From positions 2,717 through 66,716 of the forward strand of contig JBAXIL010000004.1 of assembly GCA_037138355.1 (NCBI GenBank): a stretch of 64,000 nt of DNA, given 5' to 3'. Origin of the DNA: a bacterium (GTDB lineage: Bacteria; Oederibacteriota; PGYV01; Palsa-1178). The notes below the pieces were generated by a model. The model ran no database searches, was not told the origin of the DNA, and saw only the letters and a list, made by a program, of their open reading frames with translations. Below, piece by piece: positions 23,186 through 64,000 of this stretch. Each line of letters starts with the position of its first letter. Within the stretch, counting starts at the first letter, position 1. Both the position numbers and the translations under genes were made by a program.

Positions 23186-25543
23186 TTAGAAAATATTACC
23201 TATATTAAAGTGAACTTTTCCACCTGGTGTCATTTTATCTTTATCAAGTCCGTAACCCCAATCAAGTCTAATTAACATAACTGTACCAGGAACTGTTAGA
23301 CGCACGCCGCCGCCAACACTCGAATAAAGTTTTGGATCACTCCAATTTACATCATTAAAATTATCCCAACAATTACCAGCATCATAAAAAGCAGCAAGTG
23401 TCAGAACTCTTTCAACAAGTTGTAATTTATATTCTATATTTGTTACCATTGTAAAGTTTCCACCAGCGAGTCCATTAAGCGGTCCTAATTTTCTTTCCTC
23501 ATAACCACGCACTGTATCTGTACCGCCACAGTAAAACTTTTCTGCAACTGGTAAATCAGATGATCCATATCTGGAGCTATAACCAGTTCCATTACCTACT
23601 TTGGCATGCAGAGCAAGAACGAATCTCCAGAAACTCGGAATAAAATATCTAACATCAAGAGTTTCTTTAATATAATTATAATCTCCTCCAAGCAATCCTC
23701 CACCTAACTGTACAGCAGCATTGATATAAAGACCCCTGCTTGAATCAAATACATCATTACGAGTATCATAAGTATACGATGGAGATATAGACGATATTTG
23801 GCTTTTGCCTGTTGGAATCAAAGCCACTAAAGATGGCTCTATATTGGCATATTTGTCTTCTTCATATCTATATGTAATAAATACTCTTTGATTCTCACCT
23901 AATAATCTGCCTGCCGTAATATCAAATCCATAAGTTTCTAAATCGTATCCTTGATTATTGTACGCACTTGTCTTATAAGTGTTCCACACATCAAGAGCCG
24001 CAGATGTAGGGGTATCAAAAAGCCATGGATCTTTATAAGAAAGCTGCCAGCTTTTTTTCTGATTACCATACTGCACATCTGCAGAAAACATTTTTCCTTC
24101 GCCAAACAAATTCGACTGTGAAAGCTGCACATAGCCAACTAATCCTTCTACAGTTGAATACCCTGCACCCAAACCGACATTTCCTGTTTTTCTTTCTTCA
24201 ACTTCAAATACAAGATTAAGTTTATCTATGTCAACCTGTTCAGTATCAATAACAACATTATCAAAGAATCCCAAATTGTAAACCGCTTCTTGAGATTTTT
24301 TAATTTTATTTGAATCAAAAGGTTCGCCCTCAGCTAATGTCAGCTCTCTTAAAATTACTTTGTCTTTCGTGACATAATTACCACGCACTTTAATTTTATT
24401 TATGTATGCCACAGGACCTTCTGTAACTGATAAGCTAATATTTACCGCTCCAGTTTCATCATCATAAACATAATCATCCTTCACTTGTGAAAAGATACGA
24501 CCTTTTTCTGCATACATAGCATGTACGCCTGCTACATCCTTTTCAAACTGTATCTTGTCATAGTATTTATCTGGGGTTGTTACTAATCTTTCCATAATCT
24601 CAGCAGTTGTAAATAATTCATTTCCTTTAATTGCAATAGACTTCACTTTATATTTCATACCTTCTTCTACAGGTATATTAATAGCAATAGTCTTTTTCAC
24701 TTTATCAATTATGACATCTTTTGATATTATATCGTTTTTATTGGCTTCTATTTCACCAAAAGCATAACCATTAATCTTTGCTTTTACATAACCTTCCTGA
24801 TAATATGTAGCTAAAACCATTTTTAAATCTTCAACTAATTGATTGTCATTGTATGTTCCTGCCTGAAACCAGCCTTCTTCCTTGGTTTTCATTACGCCTT
24901 TGATTTTGTCAGCAGAAAAAACATTAATCCCAGAAGCAGTTATGGAGTTTACTTTTAGTTTTCCACCTTCATCTACATTAAGCTCCACATTGATACTCTT
25001 ATTAGTTTTGCCGTTTTTTTCAGTTTCAGTTTCAATCAAATTATATGAAACCTTAGCATAATAATAATTGCGTTCCTTATACATTGCCTCTATATTAGCT
25101 ATGGCTTTTTTTAATTTATATTCATCCAGATACTCGCCTTCCTTGATTTTTATCGCAAGTTTATCTTCTTCCTCAAGTTTGGCCTTTATATCGCCTTCGC
25201 CTACTTCTTTATTTCCTTTAATTATGACTTTACCTATCTGAAGTTTCTCCTTGACTTCCACTACCAAGACATTCTTATCACCTGATTTTTCCATGTACAT
25301 TTTAACATCGTCAAATTTGCCAGTCTTATAAAGATTGCTTATATCCTCGCGTGTCTTATACCTTGAAAATACCATTCCTGGCCCATAGGTTAACTGGTCA
25401 TTTATTTCCTTATCAACAACACTTGAGTTTCCAACAATTTTAATCTCATCTATTAGTTGATCTGGAGCTGCTACTGCTACCGCAAAAAGTCCAAATGCTG
25501 ATAAAGCCATTAATATAACCGTAAATAATAATATTTTTCTCAT
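23186..25543 (-). CDS. bamA: Outer membrane protein assembly factor BamA
   Basis: About 785 aa. Signal peptide, POTRA repeats, and a C-terminal Omp85 beta-barrel ending ...NIGNIF. Start chosen at MRKILLF downstream of a GGAGG. Confidence 0.92.
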   Translation of the reverse strand: MRKILLFTVILMALSAFGLFAVAVAAPDQLIDEIKIVGNSSVVDKEINDQLTYGPGMVFSRYKTREDISNLYKTGKFDDVKMYMEKSGDKNVLVVEVKEKLQIGKVIIKGNKEVGEGDIKAKLEEEDKLAIKIKEGEYLDEYKLKKAIANIEAMYKERNYYYAKVSYNLIETETEKNGKTNKSINVELNVDEGGKLKVNSITASGINVFSADKIKGVMKTKEEGWFQAGTYNDNQLVEDLKMVLATYYQEGYVKAKINGYAFGEIEANKNDIISKDVIIDKVKKTIAINIPVEEGMKYKVKSIAIKGNELFTTAEIMERLVTTPDKYYDKIQFEKDVAGVHAMYAEKGRIFSQVKDDYVYDDETGAVNISLSVTEGPVAYINKIKVRGNYVTKDKVILRELTLAEGEPFDSNKIKKSQEAVYNLGFFDNVVIDTEQVDIDKLNLVFEVEERKTGNVGLGAGYSTVEGLVGYVQLSQSNLFGEGKMFSADVQYGNQKKSWQLSYKDPWLFDTPTSAALDVWNTYKTSAYNNQGYDLETYGFDITAGRLLGENQRVFITYRYEEDKYANIEPSLVALIPTGKSQISSISPSYTYDTRNDVFDSSRGLYINAAVQLGGGLLGGDYNYIKETLDVRYFIPSFWRFVLALHAKVGNGTGYSSRYGSSDLPVAEKFYCGGTDTVRGYEERKLGPLNGLAGGNFTMVTNIEYKLQLVERVLTLAAFYDAGNCWDNFNDVNWSDPKLYSSVGGGVRLTVPGTVMLIRLDWGYGLDKDKMTPGGKVHFNIGNIF

Positions 25544-25897
25544 AAATGTACACTTACCTCCTGGAATTTTATAAAAAAACAATTTATTATATCATAACAC
25601 CTAAAATAAGCAAACTGTAAAAGAGATTATTTTCAATTATTAGACGATTAATCATAGCAAAAAGTTCAATAATTATTGAGGTTTTTTTGTATTTTCACTT
25701 ATTCATTTGACCGTAATCTTGCAACAAACTCACTTTCAGTTAATTCCTATATATAGCAATTCTACCTGTTACTATTGATTTAATCCTTTATTCACCAATT
25801 TTATCCTGAAATAGCTGACTTTTATAATGTTGTTTTCCCTTGATTTATTTCTGATTTTTATATAAAATAAGTCAATTCTTCCTTAAGGAGAAATGCT

Positions 25898-37412: not shown

Positions 37413-37425
37413 ATATTTTACCAGA

Positions 37426-37455
37426 AATAAAAAAGGGCGGCTTTTAAGCCGCCCC
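37426..37455 (-). terminator. Rho-independent terminator ending the GT-C/GT2/UPF0104/PPIase operon
   Basis: GC stem GGGCGGC/GCCGCCC (37435-37441 and 37448-37454) with a 6-nt loop. On the minus strand it is followed by TTTTTTATT. It lies 19 nt after the PPIase stop. Confidence 0.7.
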
Positions 37456-37473
37456 AATAAACAATAAAACTAT

Positions 37474-38040
37474 TTATTTATATTCTATGTATACCTTTTT
37501 CATTTTATCGCCTATCTTAATTTTATGCACTACATCCAGTCCTTCTATTACTTGTCCAAAAACAGTATATTTTCCATCCAAAAATGGTACTGCTGCTAAA
37601 CAAATATAAAACTGACTTCCAGCAGAATCTGGATCATTAGAACGCGCCATAGCCACAGTACCATCTAAGTGTGGATTCTTATTAAATTCAGCTTTAATAT
37701 TGTATCCTGGTCCGCCAGTGCCATTACCTGATGGATCTCCACCCTGAATTACGAAATTCGGTTCAACCCTGTGAAAAGTCAGACCATCATAAAATTTCGC
37801 AACTGCAAGCTTAATAAAGTTTTCACATGTGCCTGGAGCATCTGCTGTAAAAAATCTAAACTTGATTACTCCCTTGTTTGTTTCTAAAACTGCTATAGGT
37901 TCTGTTACAGGTTTTACTGTTTTACTATCTTTTTTTGCTGCAGCCACATCTGTCACCTCTCCATTTTTACTTTCACAATTTACTCCCATTGCCACGAATA
38001 AAATAAGCACTAAAAAAACAGCAGTTAAAAGCTTCTTCAT
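37474..38040 (-). CDS. Secreted cyclophilin-type peptidyl-prolyl cis-trans isomerase
   Basis: 188 aa. Signal peptide, then a cyclophilin domain ([31 protein letters not shown]). Confidence 0.88.
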
Positions 38041-39089
38041 TTTGCGCTTTCCTCCTTTTCTTTTTCATTCAATATTTTTTTAAAGGACAATCCTTCAGTA
38101 AACATAAAAATCAGGCCTAATACTATTATAGGAAACAATATCATAGCATGGACAATAAATACATAAGCTGCTGCTTCTTCCTTTGGATAAGCAAACAAGA
38201 GCATGATAGCCACTCCAAAAAATTCAAAAGGTCCTATTCCCCCAGAGGTTGAAGGAACCATAATAGCGAAATTCGCCACAGCCATAATAAGACAAATCAA
38301 TAAGAAGTTAATCTGGATGCCCATGGCATAACCGAGCAACCAGTAAGTAAAAGCCTCAACTGTCCAGGCAAACAAAGAAAGTCCAAAAACATTCAAAACA
38401 TCCTTCAAACTACCAAGTACTCCAAGTCCATTAATAAATGTATCTATAAACCCAACAGTTTTCTCACGAAGCTTTGCTGGAAAAACTTTTAGTATGGTGT
38501 GAATAAACTTAACCGTATTTTCTCTTTTATAAAGTAGTAAAAGCATAAAAATAAAAATGCCAATAAATACAAGACTACCTAAAACAGCAAATACCAAAAC
38601 TGCATCTTTTACGCCAAAAGTTTTTCCAAAAATACTTATCGGATCCCCTGCGGCTTGCTTTGTTATATAATGAAAAGCCATATATCCAATAATAAAATAA
38701 AAAATCATTACAAGACCGTCAAAAACCCTTTCTATTACAACTGTTGCAAATGTAGATGATTTGGAGACACCTTTTTTATTTCCAGTCATATATGCCCTGA
38801 TAAACTCTCCAGCGCGAGCAGGCAACACATTATTGAACATAAAACCCATTACGAGATAAGGGAAAAGTTCCGCAGCAGTAAACGGTTTAATGTGTTTAAG
38901 CAAATGCCGCCAGCGTTCTGCCCTTATGTAATATCCCCCTATATATAATATTATCGTTCCAGATAATATCCAGATATTAATATGACTAACAATACTGAAC
39001 AATTCATTATATTTAATTCCATTTAGAACGAAGATGAGACAAACTATGGTGACAACAATCCCAAACCAAAAAATAAGTTTTTTAAGCAC
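38037..39089 (-). CDS. UPF0104 / LPG-synthase-TM-like (flippase-like) integral membrane protein
   Basis: 350 aa with about 8 TM helices. Shows the PF03706-type flippase-like topology. Overlaps the PPIase start by 4 nt. Confidence 0.65.
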
Positions 39090-39902
39090 TTATTTACCAC
39101 CTTTATTTATTTCTTTAATATAGAAAGGACTTATTACATCAAAGAGTTTTTTAGAAAACTTACTGTATTTTCTAATTCCCCACTTATGAAGCAAAAACTG
39201 AAACATAACTTTAAGAGTAGCCAAACCATATTGAGCCGACCTAAAAAAGTTTATTGAGGAGGCTTCTTTGAAATATCTTGTTGGCACCGGTACTTCGCTT
39301 GACTTAAATCCGTTCATTTCCACTTGAGCGATTACTTCAGTATCAAAAACAAAATCATCAGAGTTCAAAGTAAAAGGAATTGTAAGCAAAAGTTTTCTGC
39401 TGTAAGCCCTAAAACCAGTATGTAATTCAGAATAATGTTTTCCAAAACATTCGTTTTCAACAAAAGTCAAAAACTTATTTGACATATATTTATACAAAGG
39501 CATGCCACCACGCAAGGCACCCTCTCCTAACATTCTTGAGCCAAGCACAAAATCTGCGTGCCCATTTAAAATAGGAGAAATCATTTCAGGTATAAGACTG
39601 GAATCATATTGATTGTCTGGATGAAGCATGACAATTATATCAGCTCCTTCCTTCAAGGCCTCTATATAACAAGTTTTCTGGTTTCCACCATAACCCTTAT
39701 TTTGTATATGTACTATAGTTTTAATCCCGAGCTGTTTTGCTACTAAGACAGTCTCATCTTTAGATACATCATCTACTAAAATAATCTTATCTACAACACC
39801 TCGGGGAATATCCCTATATGTTTTCTCTAAAGTTTTAGCCGCATTATATGCGGGCATGACCACTATTACTTTTGCTTTTTTACTGCGGGGTAAGGACTTC
39901 AC
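39090..39902 (-). CDS. GT2 polyprenyl-phosphate sugar synthase (Dpm1/GtrB/ArnC-like glycosyltransferase)
   Basis: VMPAYNAAKTL, DDVSKDET and GSRMLGEGALRGG motifs of the Dpm1-like GT2 family. Start proposed at GTG (39900-39902), 9 nt after GAGGAGG. Confidence 0.8.
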   Translation of the reverse strand: MKSLPRSKKAKVIVVMPAYNAAKTLEKTYRDIPRGVVDKIILVDDVSKDETVLVAKQLGIKTIVHIQNKGYGGNQKTCYIEALKEGADIIVMLHPDNQYDSSLIPEMISPILNGHADFVLGSRMLGEGALRGGMPLYKYMSNKFLTFVENECFGKHYSELHTGFRAYSRKLLLTIPFTLNSDDFVFDTEVIAQVEMNGFKSSEVPVPTRYFKEASSINFFRSAQYGLATLKVMFQFLLHKWGIRKYSKFSKKLFDVISPFYIKEINKGGK

Positions 39903-42141
39903 TTGGGACAACCTCCTCTTCGCCTGTCTTTGGATTATTCCAATAGAACTGCATTTCAGAATGATTGATTGATTCATAATATCTAAGAGTTATAGAATGC
40001 TTCCCAGCAGCTAAATATACGCTGCCTTTGCCTATGGCATCCTTAACAATTTCTGCTCCTGGATTTTTTAATACTTGTTTACCATCTATAGTCAAATCAG
40101 AATAATCGTTAGATTTTGTTATAAAAGTATATTGCCCTGATTTCTCAGCCTTAAACTTTCCTGTCCATTTTACCGAAAATGGAGCGGTTACAGGATTCTC
40201 AGTCCAGTTAAAGAAAATAAAAGGATCAAGTCTTTTTATTAATAACTCGCCATTCCATTCAATACCATGATAATAATAACCTGTCAGGCCGCTATTTTTA
40301 CCTTTTTCCTGATAGGCCTTTATTGACTCGTATGGAACTTCATAAGTAAAATACAGAATTTGATGTTTAACAAATTTGTGACGGAATTCACTATACTTGC
40401 CTTCAGGATACATTTTCTTAAGTATTGGAAGAAGTGGCAAAAATGATTCATCCAAAACATAGGCATAGTTTGACTTAAGTTCACTTTTAATTGGAACATG
40501 TTCAGAAAGAGAGAAATGAGTGTAATTATTGTGCGGATATACAGCAAACTTATATGTGTAGCTATTCAGCCAAGCAGGTCTTACCAAAGCCATAGTATCA
40601 GGTCCAAGGTCGTGTACATAGCGACCTAATGAATACTCATCAGTAGAAAATTCAGCCCAAGAACCAGCATGATTTTTAAACATAACAAAGTATCTGTCAT
40701 AATTTGCATAAGCCACATAACCTAAAATAATCATACCTGCTATCATAACTGTTTTTGTAAAATCTTTGCCATGCTGTTCTTTAGAAAATTCAAGGACTTT
40801 CCAAATAGTAATTACAGCAAATAACAATACCATAGGTATTTCAGCTATCGTCCTGTACGCCTGCGGCGATTCAATAGAAAATAGTCCCGCTTGCATGAAA
40901 GAAAAATACATGGCAAGCAAAAGAAAGTATCGGGGTTTGTATATATTTACAAGGGCATAACCAAGTCCCAACAACATAAAAATGCCAGTTACAAAATCAA
41001 GCATTGGTTCGTTTGCCACATTATGCCTGACATTCGCATCTCCAAGGTAATTAAACATAAGCATAGTATTAGCAAAACTTTCCAGATAAAGTTTTTCCCA
41101 ACTTTTATTTTTCATATTTCCAGTACTCTTGTCTTTTTCCATATACCTACCACCAATAACGGTAAGCATATCTTGGTTAAAGATAGAGACAGTGGCAGTT
41201 CTACTCATAAACTTCTGCGGATTTCTTATGACATAATTTAGCATGGGAGATATAACTATAAGAAAAGCAGCAAGTCCTAATATGATATTTTTATAATTTT
41301 TTACATAGAACTTCATTTCCACAATAAAGATATAGCCGCAAAAGATTACTAATGCTACAGGTATAAGACGACCGGCTATGTATGTGTATAAGGCGAGGGC
41401 AGTTAAAATACCGAGCATAATAAAATCAAAAGGTCTTCTTTTGACATAAGTTTTCCACGCAAAATAAAAACATAAGATTGCAAAGAAAACAGTGGCTATA
41501 CCTAAAAATCCAATTCTGCTAAAGTTTACATGCCAGCTTGTAACTGCGATTAAGAAACCGCCAACAATAGCCATTTTTGGACCCATAAGATAGCGAACAA
41601 GGAAATAAAAGGCTGGAACGCACAATAAACCAATCACTATAGAAACTGCTCTTATTTGCATTACCCCAATACCAAAAAACTTAAAGAATGCCGCTATATA
41701 ATACATATACATGGCCGCATTTTCTGTATCTCTTGCTATATACACTGGAAGCTTAGTACCTTCCAATTGTACGCCATTCATAATATTAATAGCTTCATTA
41801 CCATTTTGGCCTTCATCTCGGAAACAACCTGACGGCAATTGATCTATAAGAAACAATCTAAAAAATATCGCCACCAACATTATTCCCAAAAATGCTAAAG
41901 CTTCAATCCTGACATCAAGTATATCTTCTTGAACTTCATTTCTGGAGGACTTATCAGCAAGGATAAATACAACCAAAGCCAGAGCAAACATAACTAAGCC
42001 TGGTGCCAACCATTTATTTACGAAAAGCATATACTGTCCAATTAAAGCCAGCAACAACGATACTGCCGCTAAATTAAACGGTCCAAAAGCATACGCTGTC
42101 TTAATTAAGCTTTGGCTATTTTTTTTATTACGTTTTTTCAT
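39880..42141 (-). CDS. PMT/ArnT-like GT-C fold glycosyltransferase (GT39/GT83-like) with a C-terminal PA14 domain
   Basis: About 753 aa. N-terminal polytopic membrane domain with a DE loop motif (FRDEGQNG) as in PMT_2/ArnT. Soluble C-terminal region contains a clear PA14 domain (GLTGYYYHGIEWNGE...FSVKWTGKFKAEKSGQYTFITKSNDYSDLTIDGKQVL...GKHSITLRYYESINHSEMQFYWNNP). Start chosen at MKKRNKKNS. Confidence 0.75.
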   Translation of the reverse strand: MKKRNKKNSQSLIKTAYAFGPFNLAAVSLLLALIGQYMLFVNKWLAPGLVMFALALVVFILADKSSRNEVQEDILDVRIEALAFLGIMLVAIFFRLFLIDQLPSGCFRDEGQNGNEAINIMNGVQLEGTKLPVYIARDTENAAMYMYYIAAFFKFFGIGVMQIRAVSIVIGLLCVPAFYFLVRYLMGPKMAIVGGFLIAVTSWHVNFSRIGFLGIATVFFAILCFYFAWKTYVKRRPFDFIMLGILTALALYTYIAGRLIPVALVIFCGYIFIVEMKFYVKNYKNIILGLAAFLIVISPMLNYVIRNPQKFMSRTATVSIFNQDMLTVIGGRYMEKDKSTGNMKNKSWEKLYLESFANTMLMFNYLGDANVRHNVANEPMLDFVTGIFMLLGLGYALVNIYKPRYFLLLAMYFSFMQAGLFSIESPQAYRTIAEIPMVLLFAVITIWKVLEFSKEQHGKDFTKTVMIAGMIILGYVAYANYDRYFVMFKNHAGSWAEFSTDEYSLGRYVHDLGPDTMALVRPAWLNSYTYKFAVYPHNNYTHFSLSEHVPIKSELKSNYAYVLDESFLPLLPILKKMYPEGKYSEFRHKFVKHQILYFTYEVPYESIKAYQEKGKNSGLTGYYYHGIEWNGELLIKRLDPFIFFNWTENPVTAPFSVKWTGKFKAEKSGQYTFITKSNDYSDLTIDGKQVLKNPGAEIVKDAIGKGSVYLAAGKHSITLRYYESINHSEMQFYWNNPKTGEEEVVPSEVLTPQ

Positions 42142-43509: not shown

Positions 43510-43683
43510 AAATCTCCACCTCCTAAAAAAAATAAAGACGGCATAAGCCGTCTTCTCCTATATATCAATAAATCTATTAAATATATATTCATTTTGTATG
43601 AACCCGGACAACTTTGTTATCCAGGGTGAGAAGCACTTGGCTTCCACTTTCTTGTTGGTATAATATACAAAAACCAAAGCAAA
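43510..43683 (-). promoter_or_regulatory. infC-rpmI-rplT promoter and leader, with a leader terminator immediately upstream of the SD (probable L20-dependent attenuator)
   Basis: On the minus strand: TTGACA (plus 43678-43683), 17-nt spacer, TATATT. Leader of about 130 nt with hairpins (GAAGCCAAGUGCUUC; CCCUGGAUAACAAAGUUGUCCGGG). Terminator hairpin AAGACGGCUUAUGCCGUCUU (plus 43535-43554) followed by UAUUUUUUUU, directly before the GGAGG SD. Confidence 0.55.
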
Positions 43684-43744
43684 TTGTCAACCATAAACTA
43701 TCTAATTAAGTGTTTTTATATGCTAAAAATGACCTTTTTTATGA

Positions 43745-62414: not shown

Positions 62415-64000
62415 TCAAAACTTTTTAACAATCGTAAACTTCAATGTTTCTCTACTCGTTTCACCACTTACTTTATTTGCCTGCAACACTACTATATATA
62501 TGCCACTTGAAATATTCTTGCCTGACAATGTTTTTAAATCCCAATCCACAGAAGAAGACAATAAATCTGTCTCTATCTTTCTAATTAGCTCTCCTGCCAT
62601 ATTATATATGTAAACTTTCATTATTCCCTGTCCTGATGCTGTCCATTTTATTGTTGCCCTATTTACTGAAGCTCCTTCAAGCATAAAAGGATTTGGATAT
62701 ATTTTCACATCGCTTATACCACCTGTGGTTTTTGCGTTTATTATGGTGATATTCTTACTTGCCATAATCACCAAACCATTTGCCGTGGAGACTTCAACAT
62801 TCATTACATAAACTCCTGAATCAACCGTTCTACCTTGAGAATTATTTCCATCCCAAGAAATAAACTGACCCTGCGCATATTCAACCTGTATGTTCGTGTT
62901 TCCATTTCCCACAATCACAACATCCGACACTTTAAGTGCTGCTTGATTTATAGATGTTTTGTCAGCATTTATTACTCGCACCAATTCACCGGCGCTATTG
63001 TAAATTTTTAACTTCACATATTCCTGAAGAAATAATACTGTAATTTGTTTAATTATGGTATTTGTTAATCCATTCTTGTCGTGAACAGTAAACTCCATAA
63101 AATATGAACCCTGACTTACAATCTGTCCAGTTTCATTTGAACCATCCCAGTAAAAATTCGTGGCAATGGTCATTGGGTTATCACCACCTGTTTTTATCCC
63201 AGGTTGGATTTTGCTACTGTATGGATCAAAGGCATTTACATCTACCCCATTTACATATGTATAAACCGTATCTATATTTGCAACCGTGTGCATTTCACCA
63301 ATTGACTTAATTAGTTCTCCTGCAGAATTGTAAACATTTATATCCAGAACGAATAAATATGGGACCTCAGTTTCTGTAACGGTTGACGAGACTGTGAAAG
63401 TAGGGCTAATAGTAGCTGTACTTGTATATGTATAAGTTTGAGTCATAGTAATGGTTTTTGTATTAGTCGCTGTTAATGTTTTAGTGAAAGTTGCTGTAAT
63501 TGTATATGTATTTGTTTTTGTTGAAGTATTTGTAAATGTAGGCGAAATAGTAAATGTATTTGTCTCAGTATAAGTAAATGATATCGTACTCGTGTTAGTA
63601 AATGTTTTTGTAACTGTGGCTGTCACTGTATTAGTAACTGTATTGGTCGGAACATCTGTTTTTGTCGGCGAAGCAGTTTTAGTAGGCATATCAGTTCCCG
63701 TCATTGTACTTGTCATTGAAACTGTATTTGTAATTGTATTAGTCATAGTATTTGTCACAGTCTGAGTTATGGTACTTGTTAAAGTTTTTGTAAATGTATT
63801 TGTTGGCGAATTAGTTACAGTTGAAGTGTCAGTTGGTGTGTCAGTTTTAGTTGAAGTATCTGTTGGTGTATCAGTTGCAGTCGAAGTATCTGTTGGGGTA
63901 TCAGTTGAAGTTGAAGTGTCTGTTGGTGTATCAGTAGCTGTTGAAGTATCTGTTGGTGTATCAGTAGCAGTATCTGTAACTGTATATGTATCCGTCACTG
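62415..64000 (-). CDS. Secreted Thr-rich repeat protein with FlgD-Ig-like domains and a T9SS-type C-terminal sorting domain. Partial: the N-terminus lies beyond the window.
   Basis: At least 527 aa. Tandem TDTPTDTSTA decapeptide repeats, then an alternating T-x-T-x tract. Three NSAGELxxxI FlgD-Ig-like modules. C-terminal KIYPNPF...IYIVVL...LKFTIVKKF tail resembling the Por_Secre_tail CTD. Confidence 0.75.
   Translation of the reverse strand, partial: VTDTYTVTDTATDTPTDTSTATDTPTDTSTSTDTPTDTSTATDTPTDTSTKTDTPTDTSTVTNSPTNTFTKTLTSTITQTVTNTMTNTITNTVSMTSTMTGTDMPTKTASPTKTDVPTNTVTNTVTATVTKTFTNTSTISFTYTETNTFTISPTFTNTSTKTNTYTITATFTKTLTATNTKTITMTQTYTYTSTATISPTFTVSSTVTETEVPYLFVLDINVYNSAGELIKSIGEMHTVANIDTVYTYVNGVDVNAFDPYSSKIQPGIKTGGDNPMTIATNFYWDGSNETGQIVSQGSYFMEFTVHDKNGLTNTIIKQITVLFLQEYVKLKIYNSAGELVRVINADKTSINQAALKVSDVVIVGNGNTNIQVEYAQGQFISWDGNNSQGRTVDSGVYVMNVEVSTANGLVIMASKNITIINAKTTGGISDVKIYPNPFMLEGASVNRATIKWTASGQGIMKVYIYNMAGELIRKIETDLLSSSVDWDLKTLSGKNISSGIYIVVLQANKVSGETSRETLKFTIVKKF
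63820..63969. repeat. Five tandem copies of a 30-bp coding repeat (continues past the window edge)
   Basis: Units gttgaagtatctgttggtgtatcagtngcn at 63820, 63850, 63880, 63910 and 63940. They encode the TDTPTDTSTA repeats of the T9SS cargo protein. Confidence 0.85.

Follow-up and report, generated by a model that had tools for sequence, protein, structure and literature searches.

Introduction

In several bacterial glycosylation systems (GtrB/GtrA/GtrC, ArnC/ArnEF/ArnT, CsbB/GtcA/YfhO, PpgS/Rv3632/Rv3779 and the pentofuranose systems with a MATE flippase) genes for a cytoplasmic enzyme that makes a polyprenyl-phosphate sugar, for a flippase and for a GT-C transferase occur together; the flippases of such three-component systems come from several unrelated families. 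In archaea, a neighbourhood of UPF0104, GT2 and PMT/STT3-like genes (MJ_1079/MJ_1080) was predicted to be a glycosylation module (Makarova et al., 2015; PMC5898192). Like these neighbourhoods, the AglD/AglR/AglS system of Haloferax volcanii combines a DPMS-like GT2 with a UPF0104/MprF-type membrane domain, and one sugar is placed on polyprenol phosphate before a multi-span transferase acts outside the membrane. AglD, a GT2 fused to UPF0104, makes the Dol-P-Man that AglS uses outside the cell; for flipping, the Wzx-like AglR has been proposed, and any part played there by the UPF0104 domain is putative. GpgSDF from Pseudomonas aeruginosa and HexSDF from Clostridioides difficile also combine a glycosyltransferase with a UPF0104/YbhN-type protein, a predicted flippase whose substrate would be a lipid carrying a sugar. 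Where experiments give a context for UPF0104 proteins, it is one of glycolipid or aminoacyl-lipid headgroups and not of polyprenyl-phosphate sugars, and we know of flipping having been demonstrated for MprF only.

Four genes on one transcript

Within the window, that is the whole stretch of 64,000 nucleotides analysed, all four open reading frames that the earlier note had described as a minus-strand operon with a strong hairpin terminator were present on the minus strand at 37474-42141, neighbours abutting or overlapping. They encode a GT-C transferase (39880-42141; 753 amino acids), a GT2 glycosyltransferase (39090-39902; 270 amino acids), an MprF-type flippase-like membrane protein (38037-39089; 350 amino acids) and a cyclophilin-type prolyl isomerase (37474-38040; 188 amino acids). 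The GT-C and GT2 genes overlap by 23 nt, the GTG start of the flippase-like gene directly follows the GT2 stop codon, and the stop of the flippase-like gene and the cyclophilin start overlap as ATGA. A single intrinsic terminator closes the whole block at the operon 3' end (minus strand, 37424-37455); its 9-bp stem at 37434-37455 contains 7 G-C pairs, is followed by a T run and has a folding energy of -18.4 kcal/mol (z = -2.95 versus shuffles). Layout, overlaps and stem thus bear out the operon as first described. Upstream of the operon, from rplT (42347) to the start of the GT-C gene, no terminator-like site was found, and the four genes may therefore be co-transcribed with infC-rpmI-rplT. 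The operon neighbours within the window are housekeeping genes. The host, an uncultivated bacterium of the Goldbacteria/FCPU426 type, is diderm, with BamA encoded at 23186-25582.

A GT-C transferase with a PA14 tail

The GT-C start codon (ATG at 42141) matches the N-termini of homologues. The core of the transmembrane domain (minus strand, 41239-41715; residues 143-301, or 174-332 in the numbering of the 784-aa open reading frame) matches PMT_2 (PF13231) with 39.8 bits, compared to a curated Pfam cutoff of 26.1, which places the large protein among the PMT/ArnT-like GT-C transferases, as had been claimed, and not outside these families. Similarly, the claimed PA14 domain was found in the C-terminal region, which also comprises an alpha/beta domain, at 39904-40296 of the minus strand (residues 616-746), with 54.7 bits compared to a curated cutoff of 24. 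Its closest relatives are polysaccharide-sensing and sugar-binding PA14 domains, and it is predicted to be a periplasmic carbohydrate-binding module. In the RsgI3-type sensors of Clostridium thermocellum and C. clariflavum a pair of PA14 domains serves an anti-sigma factor as its extracellular sensor, whereas here a single PA14 domain is fused to a glycosyltransferase.

The motif FRDEGQNG (minus strand, 41800-41823) in the first extracytoplasmic loop contains Asp109-Glu110, a candidate catalytic acidic pair that is invariant in 17 homologues; in a set of 62 homologues that includes paralogues, its conservation is 90% or higher. In these 62 homologues lysine and arginine are concentrated in the predicted cytoplasmic loops, with a mean of 23.7 as compared to 3.2 for the short periplasmic loops, and the Asp-Glu loop and the PA14 domain are therefore predicted, by this positive-inside count, to lie outside. 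Residues 432-488 form one unbroken helix in the secondary-structure string of the GT-C model, which was read as two membrane spans.

Comparison with the GT39 PMTs (fungal Pmt1/2/4, actinobacterial Pmt with Ppm1, and Cbes_1864 from Caldicellulosiruptor bescii) revealed differences. The Pfam search reported neither a match to PMT (PF02366) at E values up to 0.01 nor a MIR domain, the window protein has two extra N-terminal helices, and its lectin-like domain is the C-terminal PA14 and not a domain within a loop. It is no more similar to PMTs than to ArnT or STT3. ArnT is among its top structural matches, and an NCBIfam search yielded no match to an ArnT or Gtr equivalog.

GT2 and flippase-like protein

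The most likely start of the GT2, judged from the sequence, is the GTG at 39902, which gives 270 amino acids; a GAGGAGG ribosome-binding site (minus strand, 39912-39918) lies 9 nt before it, within the 3' end of the GT-C gene, and a 97%-identical database protein likewise has 270 amino acids. A longer, mechanically listed reading frame with an ATG at 39977 is probably not used. The protein matches Glycos_transf_2 (PF00535) with 70.4 bits (cutoff 23.3). Its best NCBIfam matches are AglJ (top), a relative of the AglD-system enzymes, PpgS and a Dol-P-hexose transferase, all far below cutoff, and no cutoff of a polyprenyl-phosphate synthase family was reached in this search. The best sequence match in the PDB was the Dol-P-Man synthase of P. 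furiosus (5mlz; E = 4.5e-11); when the AF2 model (pLDDT 88.6) was compared using Foldseek, 5mlz was on par with GpgS, a soluble glucosyl-3-phosphoglycerate synthase, and with ArnC and GtrB. No transmembrane segment was detected, so that the C-terminal transmembrane helices of GtrB/ArnC are missing, and an invariant His-Pro-Asp replaces the Asp-Ala-Asp of DPMS. Of the earlier designation as Dpm1-like, the part that stands is that the best matches are polyprenyl-phosphate sugar synthases; NCBIfam scores below all cutoffs and a fold equally near to the soluble glucosyl-3-phosphoglycerate synthase weaken it, and the GT2 is best termed a candidate polyprenyl-phosphate sugar synthase.

The flippase-like protein has about 7 hydrophobic segments and matches LPG_synthase_TM (PF03706) with 176.1 bits (Pfam cutoff 33.4) and TIGR00374 with 90.1 bits, also above cutoff, confirming its proposed UPF0104/LPG-synthase-TM-like identity. 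We consider it improbable that the product of the GT2, moved by the flippase-like protein, is instead a membrane glycolipid of the GpgSDF/HexSDF kind, such as a glycosylated diacylglycerol or phospholipid; the GT-C would then be separate in function or use the glycolipid as acceptor. Experimentally placed UPF0104 proteins do accompany glycolipid-forming transferases (GpgSDF, HexSDF) or aminoacyl-phosphatidylglycerol synthases (MprF), the GT2 lies outside the polyprenyl-phosphate synthase families by cutoff, and two distant flippase-like homologues (L084, L086) are located beside amine-oxidase/desaturase-like genes and other GT2s, with no GT-C gene in the flank read. However, the GT2 is a GT-A, DPMS-like enzyme, unlike the GT4-type GpgS of GpgSDF, the deacetylase of GpgSDF/HexSDF is absent, and those systems end in membrane glycolipids and have no GT-C. 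In addition, all lineages that combine this GT2 subfamily with the flippase-like gene have a PA14 GT-C next to the pair, and such a pair would supply the lipid-phosphate donors on which GT-C enzymes characteristically depend.

Conservation of the operon and its cyclophilin

The order GT-C, GT2, flippase-like protein and cyclophilin was the same in 20 of 20 orthologous loci with a downstream flank, from Goldbacteria/FCPU426-type genomes, at GT-C identities of 42-71%. The arrangement is therefore not due to chance, and the operon, as the earlier note had supposed, is conserved as a unit. Close relatives likewise conserve the synteny of infC-rpmI-rplT and of the pyr genes, so part of the operon conservation may be simple ancestry. 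The triad of GT-C, GT2 and flippase-like protein is also kept in three distant lineages (L026, L055 and L082; GT-C identity 28-37%), where the cyclophilin is absent. At one Chloroflexi locus, a 67%-identical GT2 lies among four PMT_2-type genes.

The cyclophilin matches Pro_isomerase with 158.6 bits (Pfam cutoff 21.7). Its N-terminus shows a signal peptide, a conserved, lipobox-like Cys22 and then a linker of 25-30 amino acids, and among the operon-linked orthologues whose N-terminus is intact, 19 of 20 have a signal peptide that ends in Cys. The signal-peptide cyclophilin of the first description can thus be specified further as a predicted periplasmic lipoprotein. It is rather unlikely, in our estimate, that the cyclophilin, and perhaps the whole block, owes its position only to a conserved run of housekeeping genes (infC-rpmI-rplT ... 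pyrR-pyrB-pyrC) and that the cyclophilin is simply the general periplasmic prolyl isomerase of the cell, unconnected with glycosylation in particular. Such a reading is favoured by the conserved flanking synteny, by the distant triads that lack the cyclophilin, and by loci L011 and L012, in which a second, signal-less (cytoplasmic) cyclophilin directly follows the first and hints at a housekeeping character of that position. Against it, in many loci with GT-C identities as low as 42% the cyclophilin and flippase-like genes still overlap or nearly abut, although the flanks vary: X/Y and PorV-OmpA (described below) may be there or not, and rplT may be distant or missing. In addition, the lipoprotein tether puts the cyclophilin at the membrane surface.

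Related loci and the nature of the acceptor

Genomes of the clade contain 2-4 PA14-tailed GT-C paralogues each, but only one GT2/flippase-like/cyclophilin set was seen adjoining any of them, the other paralogues of the same genomes having no GT2 or flippase-like genes of their own. This suggests that one donor module serves several acceptor-specific transferases. In most relatives two further GT-C-like genes, X and Y, lie directly upstream of the operon; the hhalign match probability is 90% for Y and 42% for X, the latter having an invariant Asp-Asp near its N-terminus. In several relatives a PorV/PorQ-OmpA gene follows the operon (NF033709; 131 bits, cutoff 90). The window has neither X/Y nor a PorV/PorQ-OmpA gene. 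Genes for a candidate synthase, a flippase-like protein and a GT-C are present, as stated when the operon was termed a complete module, but because of these additional genes in relatives its completeness is doubtful.

The GT-C may extend or decorate a glycan of the periplasm or outer membrane, such as the core or O-chain of LPS or a different envelope polysaccharide, in a Gtr/ArnT-like manner, or may take part, with the two further GT-C-like proteins of relatives, in an assembly resembling that of mycobacterial arabinan or mannan; we regard this as possible, at clearly less than even odds. The polysaccharide-binding PA14 relatives, the diderm envelope and the presence of X and Y in the same operon of relatives point to it, as does the situation in Chloroflexi, where the conserved GT2 shares a cluster with epimerases, radical SAM enzymes and several PMT_2 genes, as is typical of glycan assembly. 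Evidence to the contrary is that ArnT/Gtr equivalogs are unmatched, that no sugar-nucleotide modification or polysaccharide export genes were found near the operon within the window, that the cyclophilin would be left unexplained, and that the GT-C family is abundant in Chloroflexota, a group in which LPS is generally considered to be missing from many members.

Somewhat more doubtful is protein O-glycosylation, an acceptor-specific form of our main model, in which the PA14 GT-C would add hexose to Ser/Thr of Thr- or Pro/Thr-rich regions of secreted, T9SS-type, CTD-sorted surface proteins, with the cyclophilin presenting unfolded regions. The lipoprotein cyclophilin is translationally coupled within the operon throughout the clade, and the Thr-rich T9SS cargo noted earlier in the window is real (62415-63998), with about 220 amino acids of alternating TxTxT. 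Besides the PorV/PorQ-family-OmpA gene after the operon in relatives, CTD-like cargo and/or PorV-like genes occur at 0.5-4 kb from paralogue loci L022, L029, L030 and L044/L080, and a PorV-like gene lies about 4 kb from the triad of L082. A precedent is the Caldicellulosiruptor GT39 enzyme, which has a predicted carbohydrate-binding-like domain (97% confidence, structure prediction) and is required for glycosylation of the Thr/Pro linkers of secreted cellulases (PMC6151902). However, the GT-C lacks the PMT and MIR matches mentioned above, and PA14 domains usually bind glycans rather than peptides. Enrichment of Thr-rich proteins was not seen, as their frequency, about one per 57-64 kb, is alike near these loci and window-wide, and half of the inspected paralogue loci (4/8) have neither CTD-like cargo nor PorV-like neighbours. 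In the window there is no PorV-like gene, and the Thr-rich gene is 20 kb distant and has no demonstrable link to the operon.

Discussion

Taken together, the operon probably encodes a three-component, lipid-carrier-dependent extracytoplasmic glycosylation system, a reading that we hold with moderate confidence. On the cytoplasmic side of the inner membrane, the GT2 would transfer one sugar from a nucleotide sugar to polyprenyl phosphate, and the MprF-type protein, which may also serve as membrane partner of the GT2 as in the archaeal AglD fusion, would carry the lipid-linked sugar to the periplasmic leaflet. There, the conserved Asp-Glu loop of the GT-C would transfer the sugar to an acceptor that its alpha/beta and PA14 module may hold or select; fold and motif were found, and the chemistry is presumed. 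The tethered cyclophilin would work on the same periplasmic face, most plausibly keeping proline-containing acceptor polypeptides or the large periplasmic domain of the GT-C competent. As acceptor, a protein that is secreted or located in the outer membrane, or the glycan on such a protein, seems to us more likely than lipid A; the clues for a protein are circumstantial, namely the cyclophilin and the PorV-family genes and Thr-rich T9SS-sorted cargo near related loci.

The earlier note had called the fused PA14 domain and the co-transcribed prolyl isomerase unusual; the module logic itself is less unusual than the note suggested, given the archaeal UPF0104, GT2 and PMT/STT3-like prediction (PMC5898192). 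Unlike the archaeal systems, however, this one occurs in a diderm bacterium with separate GT2 and UPF0104 genes, and unlike the bacterial three-component systems, none of whose equivalog thresholds was reached, it has an MprF-type flippase candidate and not GtrA, SMR or MATE, while its PA14 domain and its co-encoded lipoprotein cyclophilin have no counterpart there. The novelty thus lies in the PA14 tail, in an MprF-type flippase within a bacterial three-component system and in the tethered cyclophilin, and the operon most likely represents an uncharacterised form of a glycosylation scheme that is well known in bacteria.

Gene arrangement and transcription of the operon

All four ORFs of the operon region are encoded on the minus strand. 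The gene for the GT-C transferase (39880-42141, -) starts with an ATG at 42141, and the resulting N-terminus, MKKRNKK..., agrees with those of homologues. The GT2 gene most likely starts with the GTG at 39902 (-), which is preceded nine bases before by GAGGAGG; it codes for 270 amino acids and overlaps the GT-C gene by 23 nucleotides. A longer GT2 ORF beginning with an ATG at 39977 was rejected, since the GTG at 39902 is preceded by a ribosome-binding site and since a database protein with 97% identity likewise comprises 270 amino acids. The gene for the flippase-like protein (GTG start at 39089, -) begins directly after the GT2 stop codon, its own stop codon overlaps with the start of the cyclophilin gene (-) as ATGA, and the operon is closed by a terminator at 37424-37455, where a hairpin of 9 bp, 7 of them G-C pairs, is combined with a run of T (-18.4 kcal/mol; z = -2.95).

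Between rplT and the GT-C gene a terminator-like site was looked for and none was found, and therefore read-through from infC-rpmI-rplT into the operon is possible. A promoter scan gave the same counts as in shuffled sequence and was uninformative, and an Rfam scan of the window produced no match. Upstream of infC, a feature spanning 43534-43690 begins with a near-consensus promoter-like TTGACA-17-TATATT (43690-43662, -), which is followed, just before infC, by a strong hairpin and a run of T (43555-43534, -) that could be either the terminator of pgi or a structured leader of infC-rpmI-rplT. Around the operon the window has housekeeping genes (pyr operon, MurJ, infC-rpmI-rplT), and no polysaccharide locus is found there. 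The window also encodes BamA/Omp85 with five POTRA domains (23186-25582, -), and therefore the organism has an outer membrane.

The GT-C transferase and its PA14 tail

In a Pfam profile search the GT-C protein matched PMT_2 (PF13231) with 39.8 bits against a cutoff of 26.1, and it also scored above the cutoff for PA14 (PF07691), as had been expected in an earlier note written from the sequence; for the PA14 domain a beta-barrel fold match was obtained as well. The motif FRDEGQNG, which that note had taken as characteristic of PMT_2/ArnT-type transferases, is indeed present, and its Asp109-Glu110 pair does not vary among 17 homologues and is conserved to at least 90% in a set of 62 that includes paralogues. 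The structure predicted with AlphaFold2 from 62 homologues (pLDDT 93.8, pTM 0.90) has a multi-span architecture that superposes on solved members of the GT-C fold, and in this model we read 13 membrane spans, that is, two extra N-terminal helices and an 11-helix core. As a mean of the 62 homologues, Lys and Arg residues number 23.7 in the predicted cytoplasmic loops versus 3.2 in the short periplasmic loops and, due to this positive-inside count, the loop with the Asp-Glu pair and the last 260 residues are predicted to lie outside. Residues 432-488 (40678-40848, -) form one unbroken 57-residue helix in the secondary-structure string of the model, with two hydrophobic stretches and a Lys-rich polar dip between them (split taken at 447-460); this helix is probably a tight helical hairpin, which bears on the side at which PA14 lies.

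The search for the PMT family (PF02366) that had been proposed for this protein did not yield a match; PMT_2 and PA14 were the only domains found with E values of up to 0.01, and there was no match to a luminal MIR domain. Likewise, no family model for ArnT (GT83) reached the threshold, and NCBIfam gave only a weak match to a xylosidase PA14 domain. Structural similarity of the GT-C protein to ArnT is to be read at the level of the fold only. Modification of lipid A was ranked low because of the missing ArnT family match, the PA14 tail, the expansion of paralogues and the abundance of the family in Chloroflexota.

Where RsgI3, a clostridial PA14 sensor protein, has an Asp-Asp pair, the PA14 domain of the GT-C protein has Asn-Asp (in SNDYSD), a sequence that by itself is not decisive for carbohydrate binding. 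In lectin PA14 domains, two adjacent Asp residues in a comparable position bind calcium. SNDYSD is the majority sequence in an orthologue-dominated alignment and varies in paralogues. Our literature search found no paper on PA14-tailed GT-C proteins and no characterised member for the combination of a PA14 domain with PMT_2/GT39.

Candidate synthase and candidate flippase

The GT2 contains a GT-A catalytic domain (PF00535, 70.4 bits against a cutoff of 23.3), and the flippase-like protein matches PF03706 (176.1 against 33.4) and TIGR00374 (90.1 against 43.2) over its full length, so that both Pfam assignments of the earlier note are upheld. Its designation of the GT2 as Dpm1-like stood only in part. 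The best family matches in NCBIfam are to polyprenyl-phosphate-sugar synthases, namely AglJ (76 against a cutoff of 325), PpgS (64 against 370) and Dol-P-hexose transferase (54 against 375), all of them far under cutoff, and the GT2 stays below the cutoff of every characterised family. Its only sequence match in the PDB is the Dol-P-Man synthase of Pyrococcus (E 4.5e-11), and in a fold search with the GT2 model (pLDDT 88.6) the Pyrococcus furiosus structure 5mlz came out on top (E 6e-12), with soluble glucosyl-3-phosphoglycerate synthases (the GpgS fold), ArnC and GtrB practically level, within about two orders of magnitude. Whereas Dol-P-Man synthase has an Asp-Ala-Asp metal motif, the window GT2 carries an invariant His-Pro-Asp at this place (residues 94-96; 39615-39623, -). 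No transmembrane segment was detected in the GT2, and its C-terminal helix (residues 219-240) is conserved, with many aromatic and basic residues. A function as a soluble GpgS-like synthase of compatible solutes was ranked low because the GT2 gene always adjoins membrane partners and the C-terminal helix looks membrane-active.

The scheme of synthase, flippase and GT-C transferase is established, and the flippase families are varied. Three-component systems in the literature employ GtrA, the SMR proteins ArnE/F or MATE flippases, whereas the membrane protein of the window is of the MprF type and belongs to a different family. UPF0104 proteins were predicted to be flippases by Makarova et al., who described archaeal neighbourhoods in which UPF0104 occurs together with a GT2 resembling AglD and with a PMT/STT3-like protein (PMC5898192). 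AglD is itself a GT2 fused to UPF0104 and makes Dol-P-Man, which is used by AglS outside the cell. Judged from its family, the MprF-type protein of the operon would translocate lipid. A sequence search of the PDB revealed no solved relative, and a literature search combining PF03706 with glycosyltransferase found no paper.

Distant homologues of the flippase-like protein (31-36% identity), encoded in three loci of relatives (L082 4141-8496, L084 7001-10359, L086 7001-9318), repeatedly precede a flavoprotein of the amine-oxidase/desaturase-like kind, with a different GT2 also following in L082 and L084. These clusters may constitute a separate lipid-glycosylation module. That the operon studied here belongs to a glycolipid pathway of the GpgSDF/HexSDF kind finds support in such desaturase-like genes and other GT2s next to distant flippase-like homologues, with no GT-C in the flank read, and is nevertheless considered very unlikely.

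The operon is conserved as a unit

A pattern scan with one genome per species led to 510 confirmed GT-C relatives, mainly in Chloroflexota (including Anaerolineae) and Goldbacteria/FCPU426 and in some Acidobacteriota, and 78 loci were kept and compared with the window proteins by tblastn. Databases label the PA14-tailed GT-C relatives by domain only. In all 20 of the orthologous loci with a downstream flank, the order GT-C, GT2, flippase-like protein, cyclophilin is retained, at 42-71% identity for the GT-C protein, 58-84% for the flippase-like protein and 71-90%, the highest, for the GT2. These loci are labelled FCPU426, Goldbacteria/Goldiibacteriota, 'Spirochaetia' MAGs or unclassified; FCPU426 and Goldbacteria count as a single candidate phylum. 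The candidate synthase, the candidate flippase and the GT-C transferase are thus encoded together and conserved as a unit; the operon proves to be real, and the core of its earlier interpretation as a carrier-lipid glycosylation system is supported.

In three more distant loci (L026, L055, L082) the triad is kept without the cyclophilin. The conserved GT2 of one Chloroflexi genome is surrounded by four genes of the PMT_2 type and by epimerase and radical SAM genes. Genomes of the clade contain 2-4 PA14 GT-C paralogues (31-35% identity) and, because no GT2 or flippase-like gene is found near these, one donor module and several transferases per genome are suggested.

The cyclophilin (PF00160, 158.6 against 21.7) has a signal peptide that extends to Cys22 and is followed by a linker of 25-30 amino acids. 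As 19/20 operon-linked orthologues with an intact N-terminus share a signal peptide with a conserved Cys at its end, the operon cyclophilin is predicted to be a periplasmic lipoprotein; the lipobox in the window, AMGVNC, is atypical at position -1. The literature search gave no report of a cyclophilin encoded in an operon of this kind. That it is an incidental neighbour of the other three genes seems rather unlikely. In two relatives (L011 11718-12200, L012 9846-10286) a second, signal-less cyclophilin is encoded immediately after the lipoprotein cyclophilin of the operon.

Genes X and Y, which encode additional membrane proteins, sit between rplT and the GT-C gene in most orthologous loci (L001 3748-6989 = L079 6754-9995; also L002-L004, L006-L009, L011, L012, L014-L018, L020 and L021). 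in X (674 aa) the Asp-Asp at residues 37-38 is invariant, and its profile matches that of the GT-C protein weakly (hhalign probability 42%), with no match in Pfam and none by sequence in the PDB; Y (405 aa) is GT-C-like (hhalign probability 90%) with weak similarity to PMT_2. L005 carries a second PA14 GT-C in place of X/Y. Directly after the cyclophilin gene, where pyrR is located in the window, nine loci have a PorV/PorQ-family and OmpA gene (L001 11941-13911 = L079 14947-16920; also L002, L004, L006, L007, L014, L016, L017 and L020), the 657-aa product of which comprises an NF033709 barrel (131 bits against a cutoff of 90), an OmpA peptidoglycan-binding domain and a weak sub-cutoff match to FlgD_ig. 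Because X, Y and the PorV/PorQ-OmpA gene are absent from the whole 64-kb window and L013 has the same short form, the window operon may be a reduced or split version.

Possible acceptors

The earlier note had pointed to a Thr-rich T9SS cargo protein encoded in the window in connection with possible protein O-glycosylation. This ORF (62415-63998, -; N-terminus beyond the window end) contains about 220 residues in which every second one is Thr (TDTPTDTSTxT...). This stretch is followed by domains similar to FlgD_ig and by a sorting domain of T9SS type A (TIGR04183, 29.8 bits with the cutoff at 23). The protein is the only one with such a C-terminal domain (CTD) in the 64-kb window, 20 kb away from the operon, and no PorV-like sequence was found there. 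PorV or CTD genes adjoining PA14 GT-C genes occur in relatives only: in the paralogue loci L022, L029, L030 and L044/L080, genes for CTD-like cargo and/or stand-alone PorV-like proteins of the PorV/PorQ family lie within 0.5-4 kb of PA14 GT-C (neighbourhoods L080 2-8519 = L044, L022 22-11411, L029 180-9196 and L030 783-5137; also L082 8486-9448). L080 encodes two Thr-rich proteins with T9SS type A sorting domains above cutoff, and the C-termini of the Thr-rich proteins of L022 and L029 look similar to such domains. Four other paralogue loci inspected had no CTD or PorV-like neighbours, and Thr-rich proteins were not enriched near PA14 GT-C loci, where their density of about one per 57-64 kb equals that of the whole window. 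Thr-rich sorted surface proteins as acceptors are a lead and not evidence. A GT39 of Caldicellulosiruptor with a predicted carbohydrate-binding-like domain is required for the glycosylation of Thr/Pro linkers (PMC6151902). For the operon itself, a specific role in protein O-glycosylation is judged unlikely, and a glycan or LPS acceptor rather unlikely.

Proposed function and implications

The analysis establishes the domain families, fold, motif conservation, gene coupling and synteny, and donor chemistry, flipping, sidedness and acceptor are inferred. A three-component lipid-carrier system for extracytoplasmic glycosylation is the best-supported model and, in our judgement, probably though by no means certainly correct. 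The GT2 would charge polyprenyl phosphate with a sugar, and the MprF-type protein would flip the lipid-linked product and perhaps anchor the GT2. On the periplasmic side, the GT-C enzyme would pass the sugar from this polyprenyl-phosphate-linked donor to an acceptor bound by PA14, and the tethered cyclophilin might aid a protein substrate or the folding of the enzyme itself. Such a system would be a new variant of the established scheme, in an uncultivated phylum.

In a more specific version, diderms of the Goldbacteria/FCPU426 type would possess dedicated protein O-glycosylation, in which a DPMS-like GT2 and an MprF-type flippase feed the PA14 GT-C family, the tethered cyclophilin presents substrates, and the targets are Thr-rich stalks of surface proteins sorted by T9SS-type CTDs and PorV-like shuttles. 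This version is distinctly unlikely as it stands; if true, bacteria would have an equivalent of the PMT-type O-mannosylation of eukaryotes that is linked to a route for secretion and attachment.

PA14-tailed GT-C proteins form a large and wholly uncharacterised family, and the operon, as a compact and conserved form of the system, makes it accessible to tests. If the three-component model is true, it would give a role in the handling of polyprenyl-phosphate sugars to the widespread bacterial MprF-type 'flippase-like' family, a role so far predicted only from archaeal genomics, and would show how a lectin domain steers a GT-C enzyme to its acceptor. The operon would also allow a test of whether a prolyl isomerase takes a functional part in bacterial glycosylation machinery. 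Finally, a search for the GT2 family returned at least 8000 matches, and the family is unusually conserved. Since the window GT2 is about 64-69% identical to Chloroflexi members, and hence between phyla, its sequence suggests a single conserved lipid-linked sugar donor, as yet without a name, that may serve many envelope pathways.
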